NCBI GenBank assembly: GCA_965206695.1
Contig: CBDBKM010000005.1
Coordinates: forward strand, 73,244-137,243
Source of the DNA: Chlamydiales bacterium
GTDB taxonomy: Bacteria > Chlamydiota > Chlamydiia > Chlamydiales > JAAZZY01
Direction: 5' to 3'
Length of the DNA stretch: 64,000 nt
Below the pieces are notes generated by a model. That model made no database searches, had not been told where the DNA came from, and saw only the letters and a program-made list of their open reading frames with translations. Shown in pieces: positions 3,894 through 49,206 of this stretch. The position numbers and the translations under genes are program-made. How positions within the stretch are numbered: position 1 is the stretch's first letter; the number at the start of each line of letters is the position of its first letter.

Positions 3894-3996
3894 GGCAGTC
3901 GGTAATTTAAGCCTTTGGAGATCGTGTTAGACTAACACTTATTAGCAATGGTCGTTGAATGAGGAATCCCTTCATTTTAGGGTTGGACTCTGTCAG
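3894..3996 (+). repeat. IS200/IS605 right-end module (putative omegaRNA scaffold), solo copy 1, degenerate terminus
   Basis: GGCAGTCGGTAATTTAAGCCTTTGGAGATCGTGTTAGAC...TTTAGGGTTGGACTCTGTCAG aligns with the modules attached to the tnpB 3' ends at 23955, 38050, 43155 and 49103. No tnpB lies next to it. Confidence 0.6.
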
Positions 3997-4089
3997 ATTA
4001 TATAAAAAATTTGGTCTTTAATTTTTGATCTCAAAATAGTTTTTTGACCCTTTGTTAAAGGGTTTTATAACAAGAACGCCTACTAAGAT

Positions 4090-4632
4090 ATGCAACGCTA
4101 TTCTAAAACATTATTATTCATCGCCTTTCTCTTATCATGTCTACCTGCTGCATTAAGTCCTATTATCTTTCCTAATCTTAAAATAACTTATTTCGCTCCT
4201 TTTTTAGTTTTACTTTTCTATCAACGCTCTCTTTTGGCTACTTTATGGATCTCATCTTTAATCGGATTAAGCCTTGACTTAGTTTCATCGTACAGCTTGC
4301 TGGGTATGTATGCTGTGAATTATTGCGTAACAACACTTCTATTATATCATTTAAAACGGCTTCTTTTTCAGGATCAACTTTCTACCGTTCCACTTTTAAG
4401 CTTTTTATTTGGTATTATATCAACTCTCATAGAAGTTATAATCCTTACCCTATCACATGTGACTCTTTCACTTTCATTTGGATGGTTTATATCCGATCTT
4501 ATCATCATGCCTTTCTGTGATGCCTTATTTGCTTTCATTGGATTTGTTTTGCCCATATTTCTATTGAGCCATCTTCCCTTTGTAAAAATGCAGGTGAAAC
4601 GACCCAAAACACTCATATTAAAAACGCCATAA
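4090..4632 (+). CDS. polytopic membrane protein (MreD-like is only a guess)
   Basis: 180-aa ORF with about 5 hydrophobic segments, located upstream of folD. No diagnostic motif was recognised. Confidence 0.5.
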   Translation: MQRYSKTLLFIAFLLSCLPAALSPIIFPNLKITYFAPFLVLLFYQRSLLATLWISSLIGLSLDLVSSYSLLGMYAVNYCVTTLLLYHLKRLLFQDQLSTVPLLSFLFGIISTLIEVIILTLSHVTLSLSFGWFISDLIIMPFCDALFAFIGFVLPIFLLSHLPFVKMQVKRPKTLILKTP

Positions 4633-4701
4633 TTAACGAGACAAGTTGTCAAGAACCAAGATATACGAGTATACTTTTAATTTAATTTTTTTGGGACCAT
4701 A

Positions 4702-6531: not shown

Positions 6532-6588
6532 AAAAAAATTTAGTAATATATTTTCCTGCTTCCACATGATAACAAAGGGTGCTTCAAT

Positions 6589-7427: not shown

Positions 7428-7679
7428 TAAAATAATTGCCATATAATTACCTGTTTAGTAGTATTTTCACTTGCTTTCCACTCATCAGTCCGGTTTGAGT
7501 GGGTATAGCGGCCCCGGATTACTGTCTTGTCTTGCCTACTAATTTCATAAATACAACATACCTTACGCACGCCTTCCGGTAAGCAAGCTACAGAATCAAT
7601 CCCTACTTAGGAGGTTTCTTTAATCCTCTACCAACCCATTTTAAATTAAAGTAGGATTACTCTCGTTTTGTAGTAGTAT

Positions 7680-7839
7680 CAGTTTCCAAGGCTATGAGTT
7701 TTTATGAAACCCTTTCCGTATGCCCTACGGTAATTTTGAAAAACAACAGTATTGAAATAAAAAGAACTGTTTAATACAAGAGAAGAACGCTCTCATCCCA
7801 ATGCTAAAGCAAAGGGTTTTCTCGCTTGATTGTCATAAA
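7680..7839 (-). repeat. non-autonomous IS605-derived mini-element (LE hairpin plus degenerate RE-like part)
   Basis: TGCCCTACGGTA...GAAATAAAA...ACGCTCTCATCCCAATGCTAAAGCAAAGGGTTTTCTCGCTTGATTGTCATAAA is homologous to 21540-21665 and to the LE ends of the IS605 copies. It has no coding capacity. Confidence 0.45.
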
Positions 7840-10865: not shown

Positions 10866-10933
10866 AAGAACTTCGTATCAACAATATTATTCTCATTGAA
10901 AAAGTGATGATCCCTTTCGAAAAAGGATTCAAT
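10859..10933 (+). pseudogene. recN: recN, 5' fragment (25 codons) cut by an IS
   Basis: MLKELRINNIILIEKVMIPFEKGFN is the canonical RecN N-terminus. It is truncated exactly at the IS5-like inverted repeat AGACTTCTTTCGAAA. Confidence 0.7.
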
Positions 10934-11539
10934 AGACTTCTTTCGAAATGCATCATATGAATTCCAAATTATAAATTCCCGCAATAAGATTGAACCGCAA
11001 AGCAAACCTTTTTCGTCTATTTCGATAACGACCGGAAATGATTTTAAAGCGTTTGATCACTCCTGTCACATTGTCATTCAAAACACGTTCCCTTGATAAA
11101 TGTCTATTATTTTTCTTATCTTCTTTAGTTAGAGGCTTCTTCTTACTTTTCTTTTTTGGCATATTGGTATTAGCATGAAGCTTTTTTAATCCTTGATATC
11201 CCGTATCCGTTAATACGCTTATTCCCGGATGAATTTTTATTTTTGATTCCTTAAACAGTCTACAGTCATGTCTCCTACCATTAAAAAATGCAGTACAAAT
11301 AATCTGTCGTGTTTTTTTATCTACTATAACCTGAGTCTTTAAGGTATGCTTTTTCTTTTTCCCCGAGTAGAATTTTTTTTGGGCCTTTCAACGGCTGTTT
11401 CCGTGGCATCTATTAAAATAAGCTCATATACCGAATCGTTTTTTAAAAGTGCTTTACGACCGGGTAAAGCAAAATCAGAGTGCTTAATTAAGTGTACCTT
11501 CAACCCACTTTATACTTTTATAAGCACTGCTTTCACTTA
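10932..11539 (-). mobile_element. IS5-family element, copy 1 (truncated; continues at 12477-12514)
   Basis: Terminal IR (T)AGACTTCTTTCGAAA. ORF 10953..11162 (MPKKKSKKKPLTKEDKK...NRRKRFALRFNLIAGIYNLE) is homologous to 12532..12795. It is split by the IS630 at 11540-12474. Confidence 0.7.
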
Positions 11540-12474
11540 TAGTCATTTAATTTTACATTGATAAGATTGCTTGATCAATGGCGAATTTAAAATTCGTAAC
11601 TTTTCGTAATATCTCTCTAACTTTATTTTTCATATTAGCCCAATATTTTTCTATAGGATTTAAGTCCGGAGAATATGGAGGAAGAAACATAAGCTTACAA
11701 CCGGCAGATTCTACTATTTTCCTGCTTTCCGCTGACTTGTGAAAACCGGCATTGTCAAGAATAAGAACACTACCGGGTGTAAGCTGAGGAGTCAAAACTT
11801 CCTTAAGCCAAATATTGAATAACCCGGTATTACAAGTACCTTCAAAACACATTGGAGATAAAAACTGCCCTTTAGATAGGGCTGAAATAATATTTTGCCT
11901 TATAAAGCGGTTTCCTGAAACCGCTCCAAAAACTTTTTTGCCGCGTAAGCTTCTTCCGGACTCACGAAATAAAAATTGATGAATCCCGGTTTCATCGAGA
12001 TAAATTCTCTTGTCAAAGGGAATATTTTTTAAATTTTTCATAAAAGCTTCCCGTTTCTTTTCATCTCTTTCCTTATAGCGAGTAGTTTTTTTTTTCGTGT
12101 AATTTTTAATCTTTTAAGGGCATAAAAAATCGTTTGCGGAGTGACTGAAAAATAATCAGCAATTTCCGATAAAAAATAATCCGGATGTTTTTCTACATAT
12201 TTAGATAACAACTCATCATCTAATTTCTTATAAGCATATTTTCTGCGGATTGGCTTTAAATGTCCTTTTTGCTTTTTTTGCAAGATCCATCGATATATTG
12301 TTGCGATACCTACTTGAAAAATATGGCCGGCTGTTTTTTTATCATGATGTTTTTCTATATGTTGTAATACTTTCTCTCGAAGATCTACTGAATAGGCTCT
12401 AGGCATTGTTTTGTCCTTACTGTTTGTATAAAAAAAGAAGGATAACATATTATCAAATAAAAATTAAAATACTA
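11540..12474 (-). mobile_element. IS630-family IS (third lineage), copy 1
   Basis: Imperfect IRs TAGTCATTTAATTTTAC / TAGTATTTTAATTTTTA. It is flanked by TA on both sides and inserted into the IS5-like copy. It is near-identical to 13750-14685. Confidence 0.85.
11553..12406 (-). CDS. IS630-family transposase, two frames separated at an A10 tract
   Basis: HTH part (MPRAYSVDLREKVLQHIE...) ends 12038. DDE part 11553..12041 carries YLDETG, LILDNAGFHKS and PPYSPDLNPIEKYW. The coding-strand A10 run (12076-12085) needs a -1 shift or slippage to fuse the frames. Confidence 0.8.
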
Positions 12475-12514
12475 TATACCGGAACTTTGACTGATATGAA
12501 AATAGGTCCTATAT

Positions 12515-13420
12515 TAGACTTCTTTCGAAACTCATTGTGCCAACTCCAAATTGTAAATGCCGGCAATTAGATTAAAACGAAGAGCAAACCTTTTACGCCT
12601 ATTTCCGTAACGATCAGTTATAATCTTGAATCGCTTTAAACGGGCAATGACATGTTCATTGAGAACTCGTTCTTTGGAAAGCTGTCGATTGCGTTTCTTA
12701 TCATCTTTAGTCAATGGCTTCTTTTTACTTTTTTTCTTTGGCATTTGGGTCTTAGAGTGAATATCTTGTAGACCTTGATATCCGGTATCAGTCAATACAT
12801 TTATTTCCGGACGGATTTGTATTTTTGACTCTTTGAATAATCTGAAATCATGTAGCTTGCCATTCGAGAATGCCGTACAGATTACTTATTGCGTCTTCTT
12901 GTTCACAACAATCTGAGTTTTTAGCGTATATTTTTTCTTTTTTCCTGAGTAAAAATACTTCTGTTTCTTTTTGGCCTTTCAATACGCGTTTCTGTTGCAT
13001 CGATTAAAATAACGTCATATTCAACATCGCTCTTTAGAAGAGCTTTGCGTCCGGGCAAAAAGAAATCAGGGTGCTTGATTAATGTATCCTCGACCCACCT
13101 TACAGTTTTATAGGCAGTACTCTCACTAACACCGTAACTTTGACTCACATGGAAATAAGTCCCGTATTCTCGGATATATTCCGGAGTCATAAGCAGCATA
13201 TCCTTTATGCTTAGTTTGTTCTTCCTACCACCTTTAACTTTTTTGAGTTTGTTCGATTCTTCTAAAATCAACTGCATCCTATCAAATGTAGCTTTCTTAA
13301 TGCCCGTTAGCCGACGAAATTTTTCGTCGTCTAAACTTTTAACTGTTTCAAACTTCATGTTATCCTCACTTATTTTAACAAGAACATTATTATCAAAAAA
13401 TTAGTTTCGAAAGAAGTCTA
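12515..13420 (-). mobile_element. IS5-family element, copy 2 (both ends present, transposase frameshifted)
   Basis: Perfect IR of 16-19 bp (TATTAGACTTCTTTCGAAA). ORFs 12921..13358 (HTH, LIDATETRIERP) and 12532..12795 (TDTGYQG, NRRKRFALRFNL) lie in different frames. Confidence 0.8.
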
Positions 13421-13749
13421 ATAATCAAATGGCCCGGGTTACGCTATTACAAAAAATTGGTCCTTTATTGATTGATATGATAGCACAACATGCCAATCAG
13501 GATTTTACCCATGTCGATACTCATCGAGATATCCTTGATACATTTGCCAATCTCTCAGACCTTAAAAAACAAGTTCAAGATGAGTTTTTAAAAGAGAAGG
13601 TGTTATCCAAAGAATTATCTATCCTCATAGAAAAGAAAAAAGAAAGCCTTTTAAAAAAAGATATTCTAATCAAACAATTAAAAGAGCCGGAAAATGCCGG
13701 GTTAAAAAAGAATGAAGAAGAAACCCTATTTTCTGAATTTACCAAATTA
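13421..13749 (+). pseudogene. recN: recN, internal fragment
   Basis: RVTLLQKIGPLLIDMIAQHANQDFTHVDTHRDILDTFA matches the RecN region ...LVDIHGQHEHQxLL...LLD. It continues into coiled coil (LKKNEEETLFSEFTKL). It is bounded by IS5-like and IS630 insertions, and the Walker A part and C-terminal half are absent. Confidence 0.65.
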
Positions 13750-14685
13750 TAGTCATTTAATTTTACATTGATAAGATTGCTTGATCAATGGCGAATTTAA
13801 AATTCGTAACTTTTCGTAATATCTCTCTAACTTTATTTTTCATATTAGCCCAATATTTTTCTATAGGATTTAAGTCCGGAGAATATGGAGGAAGAAACAT
13901 AAGCTTACAACCGGCAGAGTCTACTGTTTTCCTGCTTTCCGCTGACTTGTAAAAACCGGCATTGTCAAGAATAAGAACACTACCGGGTGTAAGCTGAGGA
14001 GTCAAAACTTCCTTAAGCCAAATATTGAATAACCCGGTATTACAAGTACCTTCAAAACACATTGGAGATAAAAACTGCCCTTTAGATAGGGCTGAAATAA
14101 TATTTTGCCTTATAAAGCGGTTTCCTGAAACCGCTCCAAAAACTTTTTTGCCGCGTAAGCTTCTTCCGGACTCACGAAATAAAAATTGATAAATCCCGGT
14201 TTCATCGAGATAAATTCTCTTGTCAAAGGGAATATTTTTTAAATCTTTCATAAAAGCTTCCCGTTTCTTTTCATCTCTTTCCTTATAGCGAGTAGTTTTT
14301 TTTTTTCGTGTAATTTTTAATCTTTTAAGGGCATAAAAAATCGTTTGCGGAGTGACTGAAAAATAATCAGCAATTTCCGATAAAAAATAATCCGGATGTT
14401 TTTCTACATATTTAGATAACAACTCATCATCTAATTTCTTATAAGCATATTTTCTGCGGATTGGCTTTAAATGTCCTTTTTGCTTTTTTTGCAAGATCCA
14501 TCGATATATTGTTGCGATACCTACTTGAAAAATATGGCCGGCTGTTTTTTTATCATGATGTTTTTCTATATGTTGTCATACTTTCTCTCGAAGATCTACT
14601 GAATAGGCTCTAGGCATTGTTTTGTCCTTACTGTTTGTATAAAAAAAGAAGGATAACATATTATCAAATAAAAATTAAAATACTA
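13750..14685 (-). mobile_element. IS630-family IS (third lineage), copy 2
   Basis: Same ends as copy 1, with TA flanks at 13748-13749 and 14686-14687. It is one nt longer than copy 1 (A11 versus A10). Confidence 0.85.
13763..14617 (-). pseudogene. IS630-family transposase, frames fused by an A11 tract but with a premature TGA
   Basis: ORF 13763..14494 reads straight through ...ITRKKKTTRYKERDEKKREAFMKDLKNIP.... Upstream, codon 14576-14578 is TGA where copy 1 has TTA (Leu). Confidence 0.8.
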
Positions 14686-14687
14686 TA

Positions 14688-14793
14688 AGTTAAATGAACA
14701 TACCGTTAGAATCTATATACAGAATCAAAAAAACAAATAGACACTTTCATCCCGGTGCTAAAGCAAGGGGTTTTCTCGCTTTATTGTCATAAA
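14688..14793 (-). repeat. IS605 tnpA 3'-end plus LE hairpin scar
   Basis: Encodes ...LNEHTVRIYIQNQKNK* (the IS200 TnpA C-terminus), followed by CATCCCGGTGCTAAAGCAAGGGGTTTTCTCGCTTTATTGTCATAAA as in the LE of copies at 39616 and 44576. Confidence 0.65.
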
Positions 14794-21504: not shown

Positions 21505-21665
21505 TTGACAACTCATAACCCTCGGGGGAAGGGATTGCTCATTCCACGATCACTGCCCTACGGTAGATCTAAAAGATAGGGATAGTATACAAAATATGAG
21601 GATTAACAAAAATACGAAATAAAACTGTAATCGAAACGCTCTCATCCCAATACTAAAGCGTCTAT
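21505..21665 (-). repeat. non-autonomous IS605-derived mini-element (degenerate RE module 2 plus partial LE)
   Basis: TTGACAACTCATAACCCTCGGGGGAAGGGATTGCTCATTCCACGATCACTGC aligns to the reverse RE module. The TGCCCTACGGTA...ACGCTCTCATCCCAATACTAAAGC part is homologous to 7700-7810. Confidence 0.5.
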
Positions 21666-21687
21666 TTGTTTTTTTGATTTTGGATAT

Positions 21688-21912
21688 ACTCATTCACATT
21701 CGAAGCCGGACAGGATTGAGTTCCGGCACTTGAAATGTATCATTCATTCGTGTCTTAAGCTTGTCTCTTAAAATCGGGATTTTGTCTTTAAAAAACCCCT
21801 TACCTCTCATTTAAAATCAGTAAATGTCATAAGTAACCGTTTCCCTTATCACCTTCCAAAGACTTTCTATGGTATTTAAATTTGGAGAATTATGGGGTTA
21901 AAGAGACAAGCT
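21688..21912. repeat. segmental repeat copy 1: unclassified unit of about 140 bp plus the 3' terminus of a degenerate IS630-type element
   Basis: ACTCATTCACATTCGAAGCCGGACAGGA...CTTAAGCTTGTCTCTTAAAATCGGGATTTT...ATAAGTAACCG...CCAAAGACTTTCTATGG recurs at 26096-26330 with a few indels. Confidence 0.6.
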
Positions 21913-21913
21913 C

Positions 21914-23021
21914 TATACCCCTTATGAATCAAAGTGCCGATTCTAAGACTTGAAAATGATCATTGATTCGTTTCCTCATTGATTGAGCAATAGAGGGCCA
22001 AGTATTTTCAAAAAATCCGGTAATCGATCTCCGAAATTCTTTAGCAGAATTAAAAAACCGATTATTGCGACAATATTCATTCATCACTTTCCATAATCGT
22101 TCAATGGGATTGAGGTTAGGACTGTAAGAAGGTAAATAATAGAGAATAATACCTTGTTTTTCTGCTTCTTGTTTGGTCTGAATACTTGTATTATAAGGGC
22201 CTTGATCTAAAATAAGATGGATATTTGGAGCTGAGGGGTATTTTGACCGTAGCAAAGCAAAATGCTTTGCCATGGTACCGCTATTTAATGTTTCATAAGC
22301 ATCTATTGTTACCTTCATACTGTTTAAATTGATAGACCCCATAAGATTCATTCGAGTACGAGAAGCTGTTGTTGCAATCAATTTATCTGTTCCCGGTCGA
22401 ATCCAACCATAAGAAATTTTAGTTGCCATAGTTGGATGTACACCATCAGCAAATTCAACAGGCTCATTTTTAGGCAAAGATGCCATAAGCTTGGCGTAAA
22501 ATTGCATCCAAGCTTTTTGTTGATCAGAATTTGCCTTAGCCGGTGTACCTTTAGGCTTTTTATAGGAAAAACCATGTGAGTGTAGCCAAGAAGTCATCCC
22601 TGAAATCGTATAAACAATGCCATATTTCGCGAGAACATAAGAACAGATATCTTCTACTTTGACATAGGTATGAGTTGTTAAATGTTTAATGAATTCTTCT
22701 GACTGTGGCGCAAGAAGTTTACTGACTGAACCACCGCTTTCTATATGCAATTGCTGTTTATTTTGATATTCTTTAATGTGACGAGACACTGTTTCATCGT
22801 CTAAAAGCACAGCTTCAGCAATACGAGTATTACTCCAACCTTTATTCGACAATAGAACAGCCTTGATACGATCTCGTATACGACCATTCTTTTCTCGTTT
22901 ATGTTGCTGTCTGAGATGCTTTTCTTCTGATAGTGTTAAAAATGAATTCATACAAAACAATTTACACTATACGAATACAAAATATCCGGAGGTTTATTCG
23001 TGATGAGTATATACTTAGTAC
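21914..23021 (-). mobile_element. IS630-family IS (fourth lineage), apparently intact
   Basis: Imperfect terminal IRs beginning TATAC, with TA at both junctions. It carries the full-length ORF 21929..22960. Confidence 0.8.
21929..22960 (-). CDS. IS630-family transposase, full length
   Basis: 343 aa in a single frame. N-terminal HTH (WSNTRIAEAVLLDDETVSRHIKEY). DDE residues in FADGVH, LILDQGPYN and YSPNLNPIERLW. Confidence 0.9.
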   Translation of the reverse strand: MFCMNSFLTLSEEKHLRQQHKREKNGRIRDRIKAVLLSNKGWSNTRIAEAVLLDDETVSRHIKEYQNKQQLHIESGGSVSKLLAPQSEEFIKHLTTHTYVKVEDICSYVLAKYGIVYTISGMTSWLHSHGFSYKKPKGTPAKANSDQQKAWMQFYAKLMASLPKNEPVEFADGVHPTMATKISYGWIRPGTDKLIATTASRTRMNLMGSINLNSMKVTIDAYETLNSGTMAKHFALLRSKYPSAPNIHLILDQGPYNTSIQTKQEAEKQGIILYYLPSYSPNLNPIERLWKVMNEYCRNNRFFNSAKEFRRSITGFFENTWPSIAQSMRKRINDHFQVLESAL

Positions 23022-23117
23022 ACCAAATAATTAAGATGATTAAGATTAAAAATAGCTGTCTTTGCAGTTTGCCGTCTTTCCATGTGGACAATGTATATAG
23101 TAATACAACATATGACT

Positions 23118-23971
23118 ATGAAAAAAGCTTATAAATTTAGATGCTGCCCAATAAAAAAATAAAAAGAGCTTTTAGCTAAAAGCTTTGGTTGTTGTAGGGT
23201 AGTGTATAATCAAGCTTTAAATTTTAAGATTAAGAAATATCAAGAAGAAAAAGAGAGCACATTAAATATTGCAAAACCTAAATAACCATTAAAAATACGT
23301 TGGTCGAGGAGATTGATTGGAATTCCTTCAGGAGTAGCGGTTACTAAAGATACATGCGAAAAATATTTTATCAGTATCCCGGTGGAAGAGCAACCTATTC
23401 AACTTAAGCAATATAATTATGCTATTGGAATCGATATGGGCTCGGAAAGTTTTGTAACAACATCCAACGGTAAAAAGTTAATTTCTCCTAAGCCATTTAA
23501 GTATTTTAAAAAGAAATTAAAAAAAAAATCAAAAATGTTTAAGTAAATTTAAATCTACCGGCAAACACAGAAACAAAAGCAGAATCAAAGTCGCCAAGAT
23601 TCATTTTAAAAATATAAGACATGACTTTTATCATAAACTTTCTACACAATTGATTTATGAAAACCAAGCCATCATAATTGAAGGTTTAAATATCAGAAGT
23701 ATGTTAAAAAATAAAAGATATGCGGAAGGTCTATCAGATGCAGAATAGCGTCAATTGTTAATATTTTTAAAGTATACATGTGATTGGTACGGAAAAAACA
23801 TAGTCGAACTACCTCAGAATTTTCCCGGTATACAACGATGTTCCATATGCCGACACAATGTAGAAAAATTAGAGTGCAATATAAGATCTTGAAAATCCCA
23901 AATGCAATACTGAGCATGACAGAGATTGTAACGCAGCCTATAATATCTACCGAGGGCAGTCGGTAATTTAA
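23118..23971 (+). pseudogene. tnpB: TnpB (IS605 OrfB) RNA-guided nuclease homolog, multiply frameshifted and deleted
   Basis: The N-terminus KAYKFR...LLAKSFGCCRVVYNQAL, the mid part GIDMGSESFVTTSNGKKLISPKPFKYFKKKLKK and the Zn-finger region are spread over several frames. It is shorter than a full tnpB. Confidence 0.75.
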
Positions 23972-24057
23972 GCCTTTGGGGATCGTGTTAGACTAGCACT
24001 TGTTAGCAATGATCGTTGAATGAGGAATTCCCTCCCTTTAGGGTTGGGAGCTGTCAA
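23955..24057 (+). repeat. IS605 RE / putative omegaRNA module 3
   Basis: GGCAGTCGGTAATTTAAGCC...CCCTCCCTTTAGGGTTGGGAGCTGTCAA. It overlaps the tnpB stop and ends 26 nt before the TTG start of the ltaS-like gene. Confidence 0.7.
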
Positions 24058-24082
24058 TTGTTCTTCTAAAGGGGGGATACTT

Positions 24083-25981: not shown

Positions 25982-26083
25982 TTGACAGCTCCCAACCCTA
26001 CAGGGAAGGAATTCCTCATTCAATGACCATTGTAACAAGTCTTAGCCTAATATGATCTCCAAAAGCTTAAATTACCGACTGCC
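25982..26083 (-). repeat. IS605 RE / putative omegaRNA module 4 (only a tnpB scrap attached)
   Basis: TTGACAGCTCCCAACCCTACAGGGAAGGAATTCCTCATTCAATGACC...TTAAATTACCGACTGCC. It is convergent with module 3 across the ltaS-like gene. Confidence 0.7.
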
Positions 26084-26095
26084 CTTCAGATATAC

Positions 26096-26330
26096 ACTCA
26101 TCCACATTGGAAGCCGGACAGGAGCACTTGAAATGTATCATTCATTCGTGTCTTAAGCTTGTCTCTTAAAATCGGGATTTTTTCTTTAAAAAAGCCCCTT
26201 ACCTCTCATTTAAAATCAGTGAATGTATTATAAAATTTATTATAAGTAACCGCTTCCCTCATCATTTTCCAAAGCCTTATCTATTGCATTTAAATTTGGA
26301 GAATAATGTAGGGGTAAATAGACATGCTCT
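26096..26330. repeat. segmental repeat copy 2 (see 21688-21912)
   Basis: Alignable by eye to 21688-21912. It runs into the IS630-type remnant at 26241 onward. Confidence 0.6.
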
Positions 26331-26660
26331 ATACGTGAAGTTTTTAAATATTCTGTGAATCAGTTTGTTGTTATTGGCTCTTCCGTTATCTAAAATGACA
26401 TCTATTTTTGAAGCCTGTGAATGTTTTTCTAATCCTTTTAAGAAGTCAATAACCCCCTCTTCCTCCAATCATAGAATATTCTTTTGACCTGATTGTCATA
26501 CCCTCAAGTCGCAAAGCTCCAATAATTAGGCCTCCCGGTTTGCTTCTTTCCGGTCTTAATCGTTTTCTTAACCCCTTTTTGGATCCACCCACATACAGTT
26601 TAGAGGATGTACTGCATCAAAAAAATAGATCTCTTCAGAATTTTGAAGACCGGCTTTTAA
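26241..26660 (-). pseudogene. IS630-family transposase remnant (second lineage)
   Basis: ORF 26277..26468 (IDVILDNGRANNN...) plus frameshifted upstream pieces. The 3' end PNLNAIDKALE-like sequence matches 2640-2700. Confidence 0.55.
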
Positions 26661-37945: not shown

Positions 37946-38050
37946 TTGACAGCTCCCAACCCTAAAGGGAAGGGATTCCTAATTCATTGACCACTGCTAA
38001 CAAACAAGCTAGTCTAACATGATCTCCAAAGGCTTAAATTACCGACTGCC
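37946..38050 (-). repeat. IS605 RE / putative omegaRNA module 5
   Basis: Reverse complement reads GGCAGTCGGTAATTTAAGCCTTTGGAGATCATGTTAGAC...CCCTTCCCTTTAGGGTTGGGAGCTGTCAA. It lies upstream of, and co-oriented with, proB. Confidence 0.7.
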
Positions 38051-39130
38051 CCTGCGGTATCGATATTAATAGATGCATTAAGATCTCTATCGTGTGTTAC
38101 TTTGCAGTTTGGACACTGCCAACTTCTCACACTTAAATCTAAAATTTCTATTTGGTACCGGCAGGCAGAGCATAGTTTTGAACCGGCAAAAAATTGATCT
38201 AATTCCACTATATTTCTTCCGTACCATTCACACTTATACTTTAAAAATGTTAAAAACCGGCTCCATCCTGCATCCGATATATGCTTGGAAAGTTTTTTAT
38301 TTTTTAACATCTTATTAATATTTAACCCTTCTATCGTGATCGTTTGGTTTTCACGAGCCAACTTTGTAGAAAGTTTATGATGAAAGTCCTGCCTTATATT
38401 TTTTATCTTCGAATGTATCGAAGCCACCGATCTTCTTTTTTTGAGTCTGTTTTTACCTTTGACTTTAGCTTTGCTAAGAGAACGTTGTTTTCTTTTTAGT
38501 CTTTTCTTATGAAATCTAAAAGGTTTAGGTGCCGTAATCTTTTTCCCTGTAGAAAGAGTTGCGAATGTCGTTAATCCTAAATCTATACCGACAGAATTAT
38601 TTCTCTTCTCAAAAGGGATCACTTCTTCTTCTACTATATAGGCTCACAAAATACCTGTCACAAGAGCCTTTTGTGATTGTTATACCTGTTGGTGTACCTA
38701 AAAAACACCTTGACCAATGTATTTTTAATCTGTCTTTAGATTTTGCAATCTTAAGATTAACCCCATCCCAACTAAATGCTGACTTAGTTAATCGTATTGC
38801 CTGCGTACTGTGTTTGTTTTTAAAGCGAGGGAAATTTGACCTTTTTTTAAAAAGTTTAAAAAAGCTCTATCAAGATCTCTAAGACTTTGTTGCAGACAAA
38901 CAGAAGAAACTTCGTTTAACCAAAGAAACTCTTTGTTTTGCTTAAGACTTGTCAAGAATGCCGATGTTTTAGAATAACTTACATTCTCTTTGTATTGCCT
39001 GATATTTCTTGATCTTAAAATTTAAAGCTTGATTATATACAACTCCGGAACATCCAAAGCTTTTTGTAAGCAACTCCTTTTGTTTTTTCGTTGGATAGAA
39101 TCTAAATTTATATGCTTTTTTGATCATCAT
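38014..39130 (-). pseudogene. tnpB: TnpB homolog, N-terminal half frameshifted
   Basis: N-terminus MMIKKAYKFRFYPTKKQKELLTKSFGC at 39130. The C-terminal ORF 38014..38622 carries GIDLGLTTFATLS, the Zn finger CSACRY...CPNCKVTHDRDLNASINI, and an extra G that shifts the last codons. Confidence 0.85.
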
Positions 39131-39149
39131 GTATTGCATTATATGTCCG

Positions 39150-39563
39150 GTACATATATATTGTCTATCCGGAAAGACGGAAAACCTCTAAAACAGCAGT
39201 TTTTAACCTTAGTTACCATGTTATTTGGTGTCCTAAATATAGGAGAAAGGTTCTTGAAGGTGATATTGTTGTTCGTTTAAAGGAATTATTAGAATTAAAA
39301 GCTCTACAACTAAATATAGAAATTAACGAACTGAATATTATGCCTGATCACGTACATATTTTTTAAATACCAAGCCTATATATTCGCCACAATTTTTCAT
39401 AGGACAACTTAAGGGATATACAAGCCGAATATTAAGGCAAGAATTTTCAAGCTTAAGATCCGGGTTACCCACACTGTGGACACGGTCTTATTATGTTGAT
39501 AGTGTTGGAAAATTAAATGAATATACAATCAGAAAGTATATACGGAATCAAAAAAACAAATAG
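39150..39563 (+). pseudogene. tnpA: IS200-type Y1 transposase TnpA, disrupted
   Basis: ...NELNIMPDHVHIF* (HUH motif region), then QLKGYTSRILRQEFSSL...LWTRSYYVDSVGKLNEYTIRKYIRNQKNK* in other frames. Confidence 0.8.
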
Positions 39564-39616
39564 ACACTTTCATCCCACCCTTAAAAAGGTGGGGTTTCTC
39601 GTTTAATTGTCATAAA

Positions 39617-41187: not shown

Positions 41188-42013
41188 ATGAACAAACTTT
41201 TTTTATTTTTTGGATGCATTTTTATGCTTTTGCAAACACTGGGAGCAGATATCCACACAATAGAAAAATATCAATGATATTAATGATCAATTGCAAACGG
41301 CCGATTCTGAAACTCTTGTCATTTTTGATCTTGAACAAGTACTATTCCTTCCCGATGATCTCGTACTACGTCCTTGTTCAGAGGCTCTGTTAAAAGACCA
41401 AATCTCAATGATTCAAATGGGCTCTTTAGGAGATCATGACTTTGATCTTATCTTAAGCAAGATCTATCTCCAAAAAACCAATAATTTAGTTGATGCTAAT
41501 ATCATTCAAATTCTTGCAGAATTACAAGCAAAGCATATTCCGGCCATAGGCCTTACTAAAACAAATATCGGCTCTAAAGGGTATATGCAAAGTCAGGAAG
41601 ATGCTCGCTTAGTCGAACTTGAAGAATTAGGCATCTCTTTTTCAGAAACATTTCCGGATAAAAATGGCATGGTTTTAATGATCGACGAAGAAAAAAATCA
41701 ACCCATTTTTAAAGACGGTGTTCTTTTCTGTGATCGCTATAGCAAAGAAGAGGTATTATCTACTTTTATAAGCCGGCTTAACTTCAAGCCAAAAAACGTT
41801 CTCTTTATTGACGGTAAGCTAAAAAATGTAAAATCTGTAGAAGAAAAAATGGAGAAGCAAGGGATCGCTTTTCAAGGATACCACTACATTGCAGTCAAAA
41901 AAGACCTCGAAATTGATGATGAACTAGCTAAGTATCAGCTAAAGCATTTGCTCGAAACCGGTAAATGGCTAAATGATGAAGAGGCCGGGTCTCATCTATC
42001 TGCTGATGAATAA
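41188..42013 (+). pseudogene. secreted HAD-like protein (DUF2608-like), +1 frameshift after the signal peptide (or a sequencing error)
   Basis: Signal peptide MNKLFLFFGCIFMLLQTLGA at 41188. It joins ORF 41291..42013 (LVIFDLEQVLF...) if one A is removed from the A5 run 41264-41268. Confidence 0.6.
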
Positions 42014-42248
42014 TCCTCTTATTCTAAAGTAATAAATTTAATTTTGTTTTTCATTATGATGATGTACCATGCACGAATGACTTAATTCACTTGATTTAAG
42101 AAAAAAAACCCTCAAATATCTCGATAAGATTGGAGCCGGTTTTTAATTTTTTTAAAATATAAAAGCGAGTGCTACGGGAGAAATCCAGTAGAATTAGATC
42201 AATATTTTCCTAGTACACAAAAGTGTTCTACATACGGTTATAAACAAG

Positions 42249-42354
42249 GGCAGTCGGTAATTTAAGCCTTTGGATATCGTATTAGACCAGCTCTTTTGTT
42301 AGCTGTTGTCTGTGAATCAGGAACCCCTTCCCTTATAGGTTTGGGAGCTGTCAA
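42249..42354 (+). repeat. IS605 RE / putative omegaRNA module 6 (preceded only by a tnpB C-terminal scrap)
   Basis: GGCAGTCGGTAATTTAAGCCTTTGGATATCGTATTAGACC...CCCTTCCCTTATAGGTTTGGGAGCTGTCAA. Positions 42165-42248 encode a VELDQYFPSTQKCS-like TnpB scrap. Confidence 0.65.
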
Positions 42355-43052: not shown

Positions 43053-43155
43053 TTGACAGCTCCCAATCCTAAAGGGAAGGGATTCCTCATTCAACGACCC
43101 TTGCTAACAAGGGTTAGTCTAATACGATATCCAAAGGCTTAAATTACCGACTGCC
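43053..43155 (-). repeat. IS605 RE / putative omegaRNA module 7
   Basis: Reverse complement GGCAGTCGGTAATTTAAGCC...CCCTTCCCTTTAGGATTGGGAGCTGTCAA. It overlaps the tnpB stop (..NIDTEGQSVI*). Confidence 0.7.
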
Positions 43156-44097
43156 CTTCGGTATCTATATTATAGGCTGCGTTAAAATCTCTGTCATGCA
43201 AAGTATTACATTTGGGACATTTCCAAGATCTTATATCGCAATCCAATTTTCCTATATTGTGCCGGCACATGGAGCATCGTTGTGTACCGGGAAAATTCTG
43301 AGGTAATTCTACTATGTTCCTTCCGTACCAATCACATGTATACTTTAAACATGGTAACAATTGACGCCATCCTGCATCTGATATACCTTTCGCATATCTT
43401 TTATTTTTTAACATACTTTTGATATCTAAACCTTTAATTATGATTGCTTGGTTTTCATAAATCAATTGTGTAGAAAGTATATGATAAAAGTCATGTCTTA
43501 TATTTTTAGAATGAATCTTGGCAACTTCGATTCTGCTTTTGTTTCTGTTTGAGCTGTTAGATTTAAATTTACTTAAACGTTTTTGATTTTTTTTTAATTT
43601 CTTTTTAAAATGCTTAAATGGCTGAGGGGAAAGTAACTTTTTACCGTTGGATGTTGTTAGACAACTTTCCGAACCCGGATCTATTTCGGTAGAATGATCC
43701 GGTTCTTTAGACTTTGCAATATATAAATGCATTTCCAGCCCATCTAAACGCGGAATTGGTAAACGAAATTGATTAGGTAGTGTTTTTAGTTTTGAATGTA
43801 GGAAAATGAACCCTCTTTTTAAAACAATTTGAATACGCTCTATCAAGGTTCCTAAGGCTTTGCCGTAGACAAATAGAGATGCTTCCTTTAACCAAAGAAA
43901 CTCTTTATTTTAAGATCTGTCAAGAATGCTGATATCACAGAGTTAGGAGATACTTTCTTTTTCTTCTTGATATTTCTTAACCTTAAAATTTAAAGCTTGA
44001 TTATACACTATCCTGCAACAACCGGAGCTTTTAGCTAAGAGCTCTTTTCGTTTTTTTGTTGGGTAGAATCTAAATTTATAACGTTTTTAATAGTCAT
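43139..44097 (-). pseudogene. tnpB: TnpB homolog, N-terminal part degenerate
   Basis: ORF 43139..43846 carries the RuvC/Zn-finger part (CSMCRHN...CPKCNTLHDRDFNAAYNI). The N-terminal KAYKFRFYPT region is frameshifted and shortened. Confidence 0.85.
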
Positions 44098-44099
44098 AC

Positions 44100-44523
44100 A
44101 TTGTGTTATACTATTGGTATATATATTGTCCAGATGGAAAACTGTCAAAGGCAGCTATTTTTAATCTTAGTTATCATGTATTTGGTGTACTAAGTATAGA
44201 AGCAAAATTTTCGAGGAAAATCTTGAAAAAAAGACTAAGAGAGTTATGAAATGAGAAAGCCCATCAACTATCTATGGCAATTAAAGCACCTGATATTATG
44301 CCCGACCATGTACATATGTTTATCAAAACTCAACCCATTCAATCTTCACAGTTTATAATTGGTCAACTTAAAGGATACGGCAGTCGCTTGTTAAGGCAAG
44401 CATCCTCAAGTTTAAAATCTCGAGTGTCTACATTAATGAACAAGATCGTATTATGTTGATAGTGTGGGAGGACTAAATGAATATACAATTAAGGAGTATA
44501 TCCAAAATCAAAAAAACAAATAG
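44100..44523 (+). pseudogene. tnpA: IS200-type TnpA, disrupted
   Basis: ORF 44274..44459 (APDIMPDHVHMFIKTQPIQSSQFIIGQLKGYGSRLLRQ). The 5' and 3' parts lie in other frames and the protein ends ...YIQNQKNK*. Confidence 0.8.
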
Positions 44524-44816
44524 ACGCTTTCATCCCAATGATAAAACAAGAGGTTTTCTCGTTTAATTGTCATAAAAAATATTGTTTAATATTGTATTAA
44601 TCGTATTGTAGTAATAAAAAAGTATGTTTTTAAGAGTGAGATCGAATGCCTAAAAATTCATGAGACTTTATAAAAAACCTCACAGTATCCGAGACGGAAA
44701 AGCCGTAACAGAATATTTGGAAAATCAGCGAGGTATTCCGGAAAGAAAAAAACGATTAGTAATCCTCTCTTAATTTTAAAAAATCAGTCAATCAGGAGTA
44801 ACTCAATTTATCGATT

Positions 44817-46238: not shown

Positions 46239-46482
46239 AGAAAAAAGGAATAGGTTTTTTGTCACTTGTTTTGTGATTTTAATTGCTGCTTGTATCGGAA
46301 TTATTTCTATTTTTTTCTTCGGGGAGGACAATTCTATAGAAGAATATTCCGAGCATATAATTAAATCTTTTTCAGGTATAGATATGGACTTATCCTATCA
46401 ATCTGAAGAAGAGAATTCTAATTTAGACAAAAACATTAAAACTCTTTTGCTGCGTGAAGATCTCCAAACCATTTTGAAATAG
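46207..46482 (+). CDS. small single-TM hypothetical protein
   Basis: 91-aa ORF overlapping the M48 gene end. Has one TM (FFVTCFVILIAACIGIISIFFF). No family was recognised. Confidence 0.4.
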   Translation: MERINPIKLIKEKRNRFFVTCFVILIAACIGIISIFFFGEDNSIEEYSEHIIKSFSGIDMDLSYQSEEENSNLDKNIKTLLLREDLQTILK

Positions 46483-46492
46483 TTAGGTGGTC

Positions 46493-48592
46493 TTATTCCT
46501 GATTGGGAGGATACATATGTTGGATACCCAAATCTTGAAAAAAAGCTTTTTGATCCGGTTCGCGACCCAAAAATGATCGTAACATACGATTAGGGTCTTC
46601 GCTTCCTCCTTTTCCGATAATTTCATTAACATATTTTTCCCCAACTTCCGGATTTAGCAATCCGTATCTTTTAATCTCTTGAAAAATATCTAATGCAAAT
46701 ACTTTTGACCAAAGATAACCGTAGTATCTAGATCCATAACCATCTAAATGACCGAAAGACAATTGAAAATGTGTATCTTTAGTATGTAGGTAATGAGGAC
46801 AAATAGATTGTTTTAAATGACGAACGATTCCATCAGCATCTTTTGTTTCACCTTCTTTAAAATAATTCAAAGCAATCATTGAGTATAGGCATTGTCTTTG
46901 AACCCACATTCCCGAAGAATAATTTTTAGCAGCAAACATCTTATCAATGAGTTCATCCGGTAATGGTTTTTTAGTTTGATAATGCCCACTAAGCTTATGT
47001 AGAATATCTCTATCCCATAACCATTCTTCCAGAATCTGTGAAGGTAGTTCAACAAAATCTCTTTTGACCCGCGTACCGCATGTTTGAATCATCTTAGTAC
47101 GTCCTAAAACATCATGAATGGCATGGCCGAATTCATGAAAGAAAGTCTGCACTTCTCTATGTTCTAATAATGAAGGCCTATCACTCGTCGCTTTAGGAAA
47201 GTTCATTATTAATAAACTAACAGCAGGATAATCCCTTCCATCCAAACCTTTTAATGCAGGAATAAGTGGACAATCACAAGCATGCGAATATTTACTCTCC
47301 CTTGGAAAGAGATCTAAAATAATAAAAGCTAAAAGTTTTAAATGATGATTTTCAATTTTTAGTAATCTGGCCTCATTATGCCACAGTTCTTTGATAGGCA
47401 TTTCTGTAATTTTTAGATTAAAAAACTGTTCATATATTCCTATTAAGCCTCGAATCGTGACATCCATAGGGAAATATTGCGCTATCACTTCATCATCAAG
47501 ATTATAATACTTCTTCTTATACCGGTCATGAATATAAGCCACATCCCAGGGTTTAATTTTTTTTTCATTGGATAAGGTAACCCCATCAGGTAAATTCTTA
47601 GTGATGGAAATAAACTCTTCCTCTTCCTTGATCAAAGAATTTTTGATCAATCCATTTAAGAAAAGTTCTGCATTTTCCGGCGTTTGAACCATTTGTCTAT
47701 TTAATTCATATTGAGCATAACTTTCATAACCAAGCTCTTTAGCTAAGCGATCTCTTTGAGAAATCATGTCATTTAAAATAGGTACATTTTGTGGATAGGC
47801 TCGATTAGAAAACATCTCATAAAGTTTTCTTCTCGTCTCTTCTATGACACAAGTACTCATTATCGGGATATATACCGGATAATCACAGGTCACTTTATAC
47901 AAACCCTGATCATCTCTTGACAGGACGTTCAAGAGATCCGGATTTACGCCTGATAATGCGTTTTCAGATACAAATATAAAACGATTATCATCACGAATAT
48001 TTTTACTAAAAGACTGTGATAACTTTGTTAATTTTTGCAGGATTTGTTTGACTTTTTCTCTTTTTTCTACCTCTAATGCTAACCCAAAGTCCTCAAAATC
48101 GCTGATTAATTCAGTTAAATAATACCATTGCTGATCGGTCAAAGAATACTGTTCATTTTCGGCTTTTAAAGTATAATTTTTAACCGTCCGATAAAGGATT
48201 TCATTATTAGAAATGCATTCGATATAAATCGCTTCCATTTCTTGAGAGATATTCGATGCTTTTTCTCGCATTGCCTTTTCCGGACTAACCATACTAAGAC
48301 TATGTAAAAGCGAAACTTGAATTTCCAGCGCTCCGGAAGCTCTATCCCACGCTATAATCGTATTTTCAAAAGTTCTTTCATCTTCTTCGATAGCAAGAAT
48401 GGATCGAATAGCAACTCGAAATTGGTTTAAGCTCTTATCTTTTCTCTCATCTATTTCCTTAATACTTTTAGGGAAAAGAGCGACTATATCTGCAGGGGTA
48501 GTGACATAAGGGACGGTTTCTTGAAATGAAAATAAAAGGGTAAAAGAATAAAGAAAAAAAAGAGTGCCAATGGTCACACCTCTCATAATCAT
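46493..48592 (-). CDS. M3-family oligopeptidase (thimet oligopeptidase / Dcp-like), with a signal peptide
   Basis: 699 aa. FHEFGHAIH zinc motif and downstream ELPSQILEEW. Hydrophobic N-terminus. Confidence 0.88.
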   Translation of the reverse strand: MIMRGVTIGTLFFLYSFTLLFSFQETVPYVTTPADIVALFPKSIKEIDERKDKSLNQFRVAIRSILAIEEDERTFENTIIAWDRASGALEIQVSLLHSLSMVSPEKAMREKASNISQEMEAIYIECISNNEILYRTVKNYTLKAENEQYSLTDQQWYYLTELISDFEDFGLALEVEKREKVKQILQKLTKLSQSFSKNIRDDNRFIFVSENALSGVNPDLLNVLSRDDQGLYKVTCDYPVYIPIMSTCVIEETRRKLYEMFSNRAYPQNVPILNDMISQRDRLAKELGYESYAQYELNRQMVQTPENAELFLNGLIKNSLIKEEEEFISITKNLPDGVTLSNEKKIKPWDVAYIHDRYKKKYYNLDDEVIAQYFPMDVTIRGLIGIYEQFFNLKITEMPIKELWHNEARLLKIENHHLKLLAFIILDLFPRESKYSHACDCPLIPALKGLDGRDYPAVSLLIMNFPKATSDRPSLLEHREVQTFFHEFGHAIHDVLGRTKMIQTCGTRVKRDFVELPSQILEEWLWDRDILHKLSGHYQTKKPLPDELIDKMFAAKNYSSGMWVQRQCLYSMIALNYFKEGETKDADGIVRHLKQSICPHYLHTKDTHFQLSFGHLDGYGSRYYGYLWSKVFALDIFQEIKRYGLLNPEVGEKYVNEIIGKGGSEDPNRMLRSFLGREPDQKAFFQDLGIQHMYPPNQE

Positions 48593-48618
48593 CTCCTAAT
48601 TAAATTTGAAAAAATTAT

Positions 48619-49206
48619 TTTATGACAATTAAACAAGAAAATCTTTTGCTTTAGCATTAGGATGAAAGCGTCTATTTGTTTTTTTTGATTTTGGATATAC
48701 TTCCTAATTGTATATTCATTTAGTTTTCCCACATTATCAACATACTACGATCTTATCCATAATGTAGGCAATCGAGATTTTAAACTTGAGAATGCTTGCC
48801 TTAACAAGCGACCGGTGTATCCTTTCAGTTGACCAATTGCAAACTGTGAAGATTGAGTGGGTTGAGTTTTGATAAATATATGTACATGGTCAGGCATAAT
48901 AACCTCCATAGAGAGTTGATTGGCTTTCGCATTTTAATCACTTTCTTAGTCTTTTCTCAGTATTTTCTTAGTACACAACAATGCTCCATATGCCGGTACA
49001 ATGTAGGAAAATTAGATTACGATATAAGATCTTGAAAATGCCCCAAATGCAATACTTTGCATGACAGAGACTTTAACGCAACCTATAATATAGACACCGA
49101 AGGGCAGTCGGTAATTTAAGCCTTTGGAGATCGTGTTAGACTAGCATTTGTTAGCAATGATCGTTTGAATAAGGCATCCATTCTCTTTAGGGTTGGGAGC
49201 TGTTAA
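48619..49206 (+). mobile_element. IS200/IS605-family element, copy D (internal-deletion derivative)
   Basis: From left to right it carries the LE TTTATGACAATTAAACAAG, a reverse tnpA 3' half (to about 48900), a tnpB C-terminal scrap (CSICRYNVGKLDYDIRS.KCPKCNTLHDRDFNATYNIDTEGQSVI) and an RE. 588 bp. Confidence 0.8.
49103..49206 (+). repeat. IS605 RE / putative omegaRNA module 8 (terminus variant TGTTAA)
   Basis: GGCAGTCGGTAATTTAAGCCTTTGGAGATCGTGTTAGACTAGC...TCTCTTTAGGGTTGGGAGCTGTTAA. It abuts the stop codon of the minus-strand ORF 49203..49676. Confidence 0.65.

Follow-up and report, generated by a model that had tools for sequence, protein, structure and literature searches.

The window, which is the whole 64-kb stretch of DNA that was analysed, contains four copies (A to D) of an IS605-like element, which fall into two subfamilies (B and A/C/D), and eight copies of a module of about 105 nt, seven of them full and one a degenerate half copy (Table 1). 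The module consists of the final five tnpB codons and the right end of the element. Exactly eight copies were found, at the same sites, by BLAST and by a covariance-model scan with the filters off, and each half of the module recurs with three or fewer mismatches, with no match in 100 dinucleotide-preserving shuffles. All eight module positions given in the original prediction were recovered in this way, that at 21505 as a half copy only. A check of the sequence and its translation showed that the module starts in the final tnpB codons (NIDTEGQSVI*) and terminates in an imperfect hairpin (CCCTTCCC-TTTA-GGGTTGGG) followed by AGCTGTCAA, and that a similar hairpin with ...TTGTCATAAA lies at the other end of the element, all as had been claimed. 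An exact-pattern scan of species-representative genomes yielded no match.

Table 1. Positions of IS605-like element copies, modules, solo ends and IS630-family sequences in the window.
Feature	Position	Strand	Remarks
Solo module m1	3882-3996	+	56.9 bits with covariance model
Solo left-end fragment	7787-7834	-	With hairpin; TTTAT at 7835-7839
Solo left-end fragment, about 100 nt	14687-14788	-	Includes last tnpA codons; TTTAT at 14789-14793
m2, degenerate module 3' half	21505-21556	-	77-80% identical; 17.4 bits; 9 broken pairs
Left-end internal fragment	21655-21694	+	C coordinates 61-100, by sequence comparison
IS630-family element within copy A	21695-23009	-	Intact 343-aa DDE_3 ORF (21929-22960)
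Copy A, main part	23010-24057	+	tnpB pseudogene with internal deletions, and module
Module of copy A	23954-24057	+	Covariance model and BLAST
Solo module m4	25982-26087	-	61.2 bits; 5' edge abuts end of IS630-like fragment
IS630-like fragment	26092-26334	-	Transposase 3' end and terminal repeat; 82% identical to 21684-21918
Copy B, complete IS605-like element, 1666 nt	37946-39611	-	TTTAT flank at 39612-39616
Module of copy B	37946-38054	-	Covariance model and BLAST
Copy B tnpB pseudogene	about 38050-39127	-	Adjoined by right end/omegaRNA module
Copy B divergent tnpA pseudogene	39172-39560	+	One frameshift at about 39360
Copy B left end	about 39510-39611		Hairpin CCCACC/GGTGGG
Remnant m6	42098-42354	+	tnpB fragment, aa 277-325 (42098-42244), and module (42245-42354)
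Copy C (A/C/D subfamily)	43053-44571	-	Both ends complete; TTTAT at 44572-44576
Module of copy C	43053-43159	-	Covariance model and BLAST
Copy D, internally deleted PATE-like derivative	48624-49206	+	TTTAT at 48619-48623
Module of copy D	49100-49206	+	Covariance model and BLAST
Solo left-end fragment, degenerate	53749-53789	-	Flank GTTAT

Decay of the element copies and the solo ends

The TnpB fragments matched Pfam OrfB_IS605 and Cas12f1-like_TNB, and the TnpA remnants of copies B, C and D retain an HVH motif and an RSYYVDS tyrosine region. It was found that tnpB is broken in four of four copies and tnpA in three of three within the 64-kb window, in agreement with the original prediction. The tnpB gene of copy B has three frame switches and a one-base insertion near the stop, that of copy C has several frameshifts and stops, that of copy A is interrupted and partly deleted, and only the last 250 nt or so are left in copy D; the tnpA genes of C and D contain stops, frameshifts and deletions. 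Copy D has its final 250 nt, including the module, joined to a left end with part of tnpA (C coordinates 4-375), and its right cleavage site is mutated to TTAA.

Part of this fragmentation was caused by IS630-family insertions, ends of which are located inside copy A and at the m4 junction. The left-end internal fragment next to the IS630-family element probably represents the left portion of copy A, split off by that insertion, with C coordinates 101-392 missing between it and the rest of the copy, and the second IS630-like fragment truncates the element that once held m4. No tRNA or tmRNA genes were found in the window.

The module also occurs without any tnpB, as originally noted: m1, m2 and m4 consist of the right end only, whereas m6 keeps a tnpB fragment, to which the module is fused by a 101-nt deletion (53.5 bits, six broken pairs). 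In m1, a CCC to CAT change destroys the right-end hairpin, GGGAGC is replaced by GGACTC, and TCAA by TCAG, such that the hairpin, the TCAA site and the guide-adjacent bases are all lost, and in m2 the right end is still readable as GTCAA. Upstream of m1 and of m4, there was no residual element homology (p > 0.28 versus shuffles in both cases) and no cryptic TnpB remnant detectable by tblastn. The 5' edges of the solo copies differ by 10 to 14 nt and coincide with the IS630 junction in m4 and with the 101-nt deletion in m6. An origin of the solo copies by retro-copying was set aside, there being no reverse transcriptase and no common 5' end.

Several copies lacking tnpB, the likeness of the left-end and right-end hairpins, and copy D, which shows that internal-deletion derivatives with both ends arise, might together suggest that the module is itself a miniature mobile element (MITE- or PATE-like) spread by TnpA without tnpB. 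We consider this very unlikely. The solo copies are without the left hairpin and cleavage site needed for peel-and-paste transposition (PMC3201880), their 5' edges are not shared and have differing causes, and m6 still contains part of tnpB. A PATE is gene-less with both hairpins, whereas m1, m2 and m4 have one end, m6 has one end plus the tnpB fragment, and copy D, the sole PATE-like copy, has both ends but also gene remnants and the TCAA to TTAA change.

Structure of the module and of the element ends

The consensus fold of the module has 25 pairs, with compensatory changes in 20 of them. In the alignment, 91.2% of cells were paired, compared to 73.1% in shuffles (none of 500 reached 91.2%) and 40 to 53% with slid partners. 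In each of the 80 related metagenome loci that include the flank, 57 of them outside the seed, the covariance model, R1, found exactly one site, which always lay on the same strand as tnpB and overlapped its 3' end. Single-sequence RNA folds were indistinguishable from those of shuffles (z from -1.6 to +0.8), and only comparative analysis was informative. Rfam gave nothing at gathering thresholds for the window and nothing at E up to 10 for copy B. Two loci from unrelated metagenomes, L001 and L002, encode TnpBs 64 to 65% identical to that of copy B (its 96% identical relative P0001), and their modules are near-identical; the L001 right-end hairpin contains compensatory changes. Judged by these sequence comparisons, the module is the TnpB omegaRNA scaffold as well as the transposon right end, as the original prediction had it from the position at the tnpB 3' end, and RNA is presumably transcribed from it.

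The left-end hairpin is CCCTTTGC-TTTA-GCATTGGG, with the compensatory variant CCCACC/GGTGGG in copy B, and the right-end hairpin segment of the covariance model weakly matched the left-end hairpins too. As in other IS200/IS605 elements, imperfect subterminal palindromes are present at both ends on the same strand, and terminal inverted repeats are absent. The motif TTAT was found 5' of six of six left ends and TTTAT 5' of five of the six, which bears out the predicted conservation of TTTAT next to the left end. The spacing from TTTAT to the left hairpin is 18 nt, and the 9-nt AGCTGTCAA 3' of the right hairpin ends in TCAA; the corresponding IS608 spacings are 19 nt from TTAC to the foot of the left hairpin and 10 nt from the foot of the right hairpin to TCAA (PMC3201880). 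The distances from the hairpins to the predicted cleavage sites therefore fit those of IS200/IS605 elements, and of IS608 in particular, in which the right end is likewise at a TCAA 9 to 10 nt past the hairpin and the left cleavage point about 18 to 19 nt before it.

By analogy, TTTAT would be the TAM, and the flank just past TCAA would be the guide. When the eight putative guides were compared with the window, the only second-site match was a chance AT-rich one that does not extend (the m1 flank versus 14868).

Conservation of the module and decay of the solo copies

Identity within the A/C/D subfamily is 87.5 to 91% for the module and 84 to 89% for the tnpB part; pooled, 280 of 312 module positions are identical versus 727 of 824 in the adjacent tnpB pseudogene. 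Between B and A/C/D, the corresponding values are 88.5 to 89.4% for the module and 64 to 67% for tnpB. Therefore, the description of the module as the best-conserved part of the element holds between subfamilies (89% versus 64 to 67%) and not within one (about 90% versus 88%). Because the excess is confined to the comparison between subfamilies, it dates from the period when the elements were active. The comparison of right end and tnpB that had been proposed as a check, run within A/C/D, thus gave no excess for the module, and the suggestion that the right ends are retained for another reason did not survive it.

The between-subfamily figures could be read differently: the B and A/C/D modules would be near-identical without long-term purifying selection if transposon ends had recently recombined or undergone gene conversion within this genome, and indeed the module is as similar between subfamilies as within one while the tnpB parts differ by a third or more. 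We regard this as unlikely: L001 and L002 carry the same module sequence in unrelated metagenomes, next to equally divergent TnpBs, and slow evolution under constraint therefore suffices for the between-subfamily pattern.

With the covariance model, the solo copies scored 61, 57, 53 and 17 bits, compared to 90, 81, 72 and 63 bits for the tnpB-linked copies, and the solo copies have three to nine broken helix pairs and mutated near-invariant bases. The within-subfamily divergence and this decay contradict preservation of the module after the death of the element. They also bear on the proposal that the solo modules are under selection as stand-alone guide-RNA genes, loaded in trans by an intact TnpB elsewhere, where they would protect or restore insertion sites or regulate neighbouring genes. 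Gene-less PATE elements encoding omegaRNAs that depend on TnpB in trans have been described (PMC10055086), and full-length TnpBs are very probably present in this genome. Furthermore, three truncation points cluster within about 15 nt of the scaffold 5' edge, as selection against deletions entering the scaffold would give; such clustering would not be expected from purely random decay, and IS630 accounts for m4 only. However, it is the solo copies that are the most decayed, the hairpin and the guide-adjacent bases are gone from m1, module conservation within the subfamily is no higher than that of the pseudogene body, and no putative guide matches a second site in the window. Solo left ends survive too, and these code for no guide RNA; indeed, the four left-end fragments found alone (Table 1) mean that the right end is not the sole persisting piece. 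Selection for solo guides thus seems to us quite improbable.

Full-length relatives and comparison with known systems

The 202-aa ORF of copy B belongs to the P0001 protein cluster of 28 members. At least seven of these are full-length TnpBs encoded on other large contigs, among them TnpBs of 363 and 367 aa (contigs of 473044, 189329 and 579096 bp). A contig of 207729 bp carries the window's own ORF and housekeeping proteins, and five other window proteins (four housekeeping proteins and the copy C TnpB fragment) are each the sole member of their cluster. The host could not be placed from PepN, which among the matches listed was no more than 52% identical to any protein of the species set, or from ProA, for which identity reached at most 65% and the best named hits were in Bacteroidota. 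P0001 matched the ISDra2 TnpB structures 8exa and 8h1j over residues 3-356 (E = 7e-67), the stitched copy B TnpB is 96% identical to it, and both contain the motifs GIDLG, TIEGL and HDRD of the RuvC-like D-E-D triad and CxxC...CxxC of the zinc finger. An intact TnpA with a Y1_Tnp domain (PF01797), P0143, is encoded on the same 207729-bp contig as the window and matched the ISHp608 TnpA structure 2a6m (E = 1.7e-30); a full-length B-type TnpA was not among the top hits. These structure matches and the Pfam OrfB_IS605 match agree with the family assignment originally made.

It is thus very probable that the same assembly encodes full-length B-type TnpBs and at least one intact TnpA elsewhere, the same-genome assignment of the TnpBs being based on protein-cluster membership. 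The original prediction that all nucleases are dead applies to the 64-kb window and not beyond it, and its suggestion of an intact TnpB or TnpA elsewhere in the genome fits these data.

In keeping with the observed anatomy, homology, covariation, decay pattern and existence of full-length proteins, we think it highly likely that the module is an ordinary IS605-family end that is decaying here, that the debris is neutral, and that full-length genes very probably exist elsewhere. Remains of two subfamilies of a single IS200/IS605-family insertion sequence are found in the window. An intact element is about 1.67 kb long, with a left end carrying a subterminal imperfect hairpin 3' of TTAT/TTTAT, then tnpA (encoding a Y1 HUH transposase), a divergent tnpB (encoding a 363-aa RNA-guided nuclease), and a right end with a similar hairpin, terminating in TCAA. 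As single-stranded DNA, the module would be the substrate bound and cleaved by TnpA, and as RNA, it would be the omegaRNA scaffold bound by TnpB, and the guide would be taken from the flank past TCAA. Such a double constraint may have kept the module near-identical between the subfamilies while they were active, and it would thus be the most recognisable part today; that the nuclease gene changes much faster than the RNA/DNA end would indicate how strong the constraint is. The local copies have since been inactivated by frameshifts, deletions and IS630-family insertions, and the solo right and left ends would be debris of this process that is drifting neutrally. The family is probably not extinct, as full-length B-type TnpBs and at least one TnpA very probably persist in the assembly.

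The biology is that of textbook IS200/IS605 elements, and the chief value of the analysis is corrective: seen within 64 kb alone, the nuclease family looked dead and its guide-RNA genes mysteriously preserved, whereas the wider data point to a family that very probably retains full-length genes, with neutral debris. The analysis also provides a covariation-supported omegaRNA/right-end model for a large TnpB clade that has no family in Rfam 15.

The TAM of ISDra2 is TTGAT, compared to the putative TTTAT here. The Deinococcus radiodurans ISDra2 TnpB is homologous over the full length and shares the D-E-D RuvC residues, and its guide-RNA scaffold also comes from the tnpB 3' end and right end, with the guide taken here, by inference, to be the 3' flank. 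The scaffold of about 105 nt is unlike that of ISDra2 in sequence, and the TnpB is shorter (363 versus 408 aa) because the stop codon lies inside the C-terminal coding sequence of its relatives. The compact TnpB, short scaffold and putative TAM of the element make it a candidate for trial as an editing tool.

The PATE-like and tnpA-less ISGst elements of Geobacillus stearothermophilus (Meers et al. 2023; PMC10055086) are likewise numerous non-autonomous derivatives with conserved ends, and here too the omegaRNAs would depend on a TnpB encoded elsewhere, with TnpA likewise provided in trans by one locus or a few. PATEs retain both ends and mobility, whereas the solo copies here are one-ended and decaying.

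With IS608, IS605 and IS606 of Helicobacter pylori, the element shares a Y1 HUH TnpA, same-strand subterminal imperfect hairpins at both ends and a predicted T-rich tetranucleotide target adjoining the left end. The host differs, and most copies here are dead. The divergent tnpA and tnpB resemble those of IS605 and IS606, those of IS608 being co-directional, and the left flank is TTAT/TTTAT, compared to TTAC in IS608. The right ends of relatives (e.g., L016, GGAATCCCCTTGCTTTAGCTATGGGGAGCGGTCAA) closely resemble that of IS608. Under the IS608 guide/cleavage pairing rule (GL AAAG with CL TTAC), the hairpin foot of copy B is ambiguous, and the fit of AAAA with TTAT in the A/C/D-type left ends is therefore not counted as evidence here.

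Module copies, elements and DNA ends in the window

The prediction of eight copies of the module, a ~105-nt repeat of the last tnpB codons and the right end (RE), was confirmed. Both module halves were found repeatedly in a window scan at up to 3 mismatches, 100 dinucleotide-preserving shuffles gave 0 matches, and BLAST with one copy and a covariance-model scan with the filters off returned the identical eight sites and none besides. The module starts within the final tnpB codons (GQSVI*) and finishes with an imperfect hairpin and AGCTGTCAA after it. The two longest copies served as references for mapping the window, which gave the element map in the table. Four copies retain tnpB sequence; A, C and D form one subfamily and B represents the other.

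Module copies (m1 to m8), IS605-like elements (copies A to D) and solo left-end fragments in the window
Feature	Positions	Strand	Remark
m1	3882-3996	+	solo
m2	21505-21556	-	3' half only, 77-80% identical
m3	23954-24057	+	within copy A
m4	25982-26087	-	solo
m5	37946-38054	-	within copy B
m6	42245-42354	+	accompanied by tnpB fragment
m7	43053-43159	-	within copy C
m8	49100-49206	+	within copy D
Copy A	23010-24057	+	left part probably 21655-21694
Copy B	37946-39611	-	complete
Copy C	43053-44571	-	both ends present
Copy D	48624-49206	+	internal deletion: left end and part of tnpA fused to last 250 nt
Solo left-end fragment	7787-7834		
Solo left-end fragment	14687-14788		
Solo left-end fragment	53749-53789		

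It was found that tnpB is broken in every copy in the window, by three frame switches plus an additional G ahead of the stop in copy B, by multiple frameshifts and stops in copy C, and by deletions in copy A. The tnpA gene lies between the left end and tnpB in divergent orientation, and has a single frameshift in copy B (gene at 39172-39560, frameshift between HVHIF and LNTKP) and several lesions in copies C and D. The RE module does persist without tnpB, as the solo modules show, but it is not alone in this: solo left-end fragments persist too, and therefore both ends remain as debris.

The left hairpin CCCTTTGC-TTTA-GCATTGGG is similar to the right hairpin CCCTTCCC-TTTA-GGGTTGGG, and copy B has a compensatory variant of the left hairpin (CCCACC/GGTGGG). 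The left boundary is 18 nt ahead of its hairpin and TCAA finishes 9 nt beyond the right hairpin, close to the 19 and 10 nt of IS608 (PMC3201880). Left ends are preceded by TTAT in 6/6 cases and by TTTAT in 5/6, and TTTAT/TTAT would be a reasonable candidate TAM.

The window is rich in IS630-family elements, which appear to be the main agents breaking up the IS605-like copies. One of them (21695-23009), with an intact DDE_3 ORF, separates the probable left part of copy A from the remainder, with 292 nt lost, which fits either two insertions and then recombination, or an insertion and then a deletion. The 5' edge of m4 adjoins the terminal repeat of another IS630-family element, m6 has a 101-nt deletion stopping at the module, and the region upstream of m1 is of no recognisable origin. 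At least six IS630-family copies or fragments (DDE_3, HTH_Tnp_IS630) were located, at 1321-2177, 2605-3408, 10933-14687, 21695-23009, 26092-26334 and 42030-42119; the stretches 11537-12476 and 13747-14687 are 99.3% identical, and the intact ORF inside copy A (21929-22960) encodes 343 aa.

The interval 21557-21654, flanked by m2 and the left-end fragment of copy A, contains internal left-end sequence duplicated in inverted form, CAAATAGACGCTTT then TTGGGATGAGAGCG in the opposite sense; this points to a snap-back rearrangement or to a second element that is very degenerate. A sulfatase/LTA-synthase-like gene (24020-25960) sits between the inward-facing modules m3 and m4, the former ending 37 nt within the longest ORF call and the latter 22 nt past the stop, so that putative guides would read into the two ends of this gene; the bracketing is probably a coincidence.

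The module as a putative omegaRNA scaffold

A protein search with the stitched copy B TnpB, which also matched thousands of other TnpBs, found a full-length 363-aa TnpB (P0001) of 96% identity, and P0001 matched ISDra2 TnpB structures over its whole length (E=7e-67). The TnpBs of two metagenome contigs (L001 and L002) are only 64-65% identical to the stitched protein, and the modules of these contigs are nearly identical to those in the window, with compensatory changes in the L001 terminal hairpin. All of 80 more distant relatives, with TnpBs 44-52% identical, have 100-140 nt past tnpB, ending GGGAG..GTCAA.

A consensus fold derived from an alignment of four closely and 22 distantly related sequences has five helices with 25 pairs in all, and 20 of these pairs show compensatory changes. 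The paired cells amounted to 91.2% compared to 73.1% in column shuffles, of which 0/500 reached the observed value, and a partner-sliding control paired 40-53% of cells. A covariance model built from the module alignment (R1) gave exactly one match in each of the 80/80 related loci with flank present (57 of them outside the seed), on the tnpB strand and starting ~15 nt before the tnpB end. No family matching the module was present in Rfam 15. On the basis of the covarying fold and the R1 matches across relatives, the module is read as the putative omegaRNA scaffold and RE shared by a large clade of TnpBs. The predicted omegaRNA would be ~105-125 nt long, start near GGGCAGUCGG and reach ~16-20 nt past TCAA.

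The tnpB stop of this subfamily falls within sequence that relatives translate (GQSVI*AFGDRV, compared to GQAVSAFGENV in P0004, a related TnpB with a longer C-terminus), which confirms that it is retained as RNA or DNA rather than as protein. The GQSVI* stop, at 38035-38054 in copy B, thus falls where relatives read on into a longer C-terminal tail (GQAVSAFGENVSLV...), and the nucleotides are conserved despite the closed reading frame. In L001, the 5' part of the scaffold has a 39-nt perfect hairpin (CCTCACACCACGATCC...GGTCGGGTGTGCGG; 1270-1308) inserted behind GGTAATGT, and so the position of insertion is a tolerated loop.

Conservation and decay of the module

The original prediction held that the RE is the best-conserved part of the element and might be retained for another reason after inactivation. 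Between subfamilies (copy B compared to A, C and D), the module is indeed better conserved, at 88.5-89.4% identity as opposed to 64-67% for the tnpB part. Within the A/C/D subfamily, however, the module shows no excess, with pairwise values of 87.5-91% as opposed to 84-89% for tnpB, and pooled values of 280/312 (89.7%) and 727/824 (88.2%), respectively. Because the excess is found only between subfamilies, it arose before inactivation and is a mark of constraint from the time when the elements were active, and the proposed retention for another reason is not supported by the prediction's own test.

In copy B, the youngest, the sole flaw in the fold is a family-wide T-T mismatch, and in the other module copies between 1 and 9 pairs are broken and near-invariant bases have mutated; m1 has lost the terminal hairpin and TCAA, and in m8 TCAA has become TTAA. 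The tnpB-linked copies scored 90, 81, 72 and 63 bits with the model, the first three being in the model seed and hence somewhat favoured, and the solo copies 61, 57, 53 and 17 bits. Rather than protected genes, the solo copies represent the oldest debris.

Three truncation points (1423, 1432 and 1433 along copy C) lie within ~15 nt of the scaffold 5' edge, and uniform breakage over ~1430 nt would not give such a cluster. Selection that keeps the scaffold intact would account for it; the comparison of conservation and decay, however, speaks against this. A local hotspot is possible, with the AT-rich ATAATATAGATA and a TA used by IS630 just upstream, and stalling beside structured DNA is possible as well; three cases are too few to decide.

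Gene-less derivatives that carry omegaRNAs and depend on TnpB in trans, called PATEs, have already been described (PMC10055086). Copy D resembles them. The solo copies lack a left end and so do not qualify as PATEs, and it is very unlikely that the orphan modules are guide genes used in trans. The IS605-like copies are instead an ordinary, decaying population of a new IS200/IS605 family member which, judged at the level of sequence, would belong with IS608/IS605 in its transposition and with ISDra2 in its RNA-guided nuclease.

Full-length genes outside the window and other features of the genome

Exact look-ups placed the ProA, PepN and two transporters of the window on a 207729-bp contig, each being the sole member of its own 90% cluster. 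The 202-aa TnpB fragment of the window belongs to the 28-member P0001 cluster, and among its 15 members listed are five 363-aa proteins encoded on a 473044-bp contig, 367-aa proteins on 189329- and 579096-bp contigs, and truncated forms on 207729-, 231960- and 180012-bp contigs. Since the sequence collection searched contained no second genome of the host lineage, we infer that these contigs are very probably one assembly of at least 1.86 Mb. Therefore, the statement that all nucleases are dead is correct within the window, but full-length TnpBs are very probably present elsewhere in the same genome.

The stitched TnpA query found an intact 134-aa TnpA (P0143) outside the window on the same 207729-bp contig, in agreement with the suggestion of intact genes elsewhere. 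P0143 matches ISHp608 TnpA (E=1.7e-30) and is nearer to the A/C/D type. The top matches included no full-length TnpA of the B type. At least seven full-length TnpBs of the B type appear to be encoded in the assembly, and the sole intact TnpA seen is of the other subfamily, which suggests trans-mobilisation.

Judging by the IS load and the pseudogenes, selection on the genome may be relaxed. The GC content of the window is 31-41%. PepN is at most 52% identical to the matches listed and fits a proteobacterial-type model, and ProA is at most 65% identical to any match, the best named ones being from Bacteroidota. A DUF2608 protein is encoded at 41291-42013. A secondary-metabolite cluster (53781-61878) comprises a phosphopantetheinyl transferase (53781-54452), a type I PKS that has a thioesterase-like end (54472-57855) and the adenylation module of an NRPS (59488-61878), and is interrupted by a DDE transposase (58204-59253). 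This ORF matches DDE_5 and DDE_Tnp_1 and is part of another transposon, to which inverted repeats near the two ends of the window belong (1183-1259 and 2186-2638, the latter a partial copy, 97-98% identical to 58173-59328); bracketing ~56 kb, these repeats could mediate inversion.
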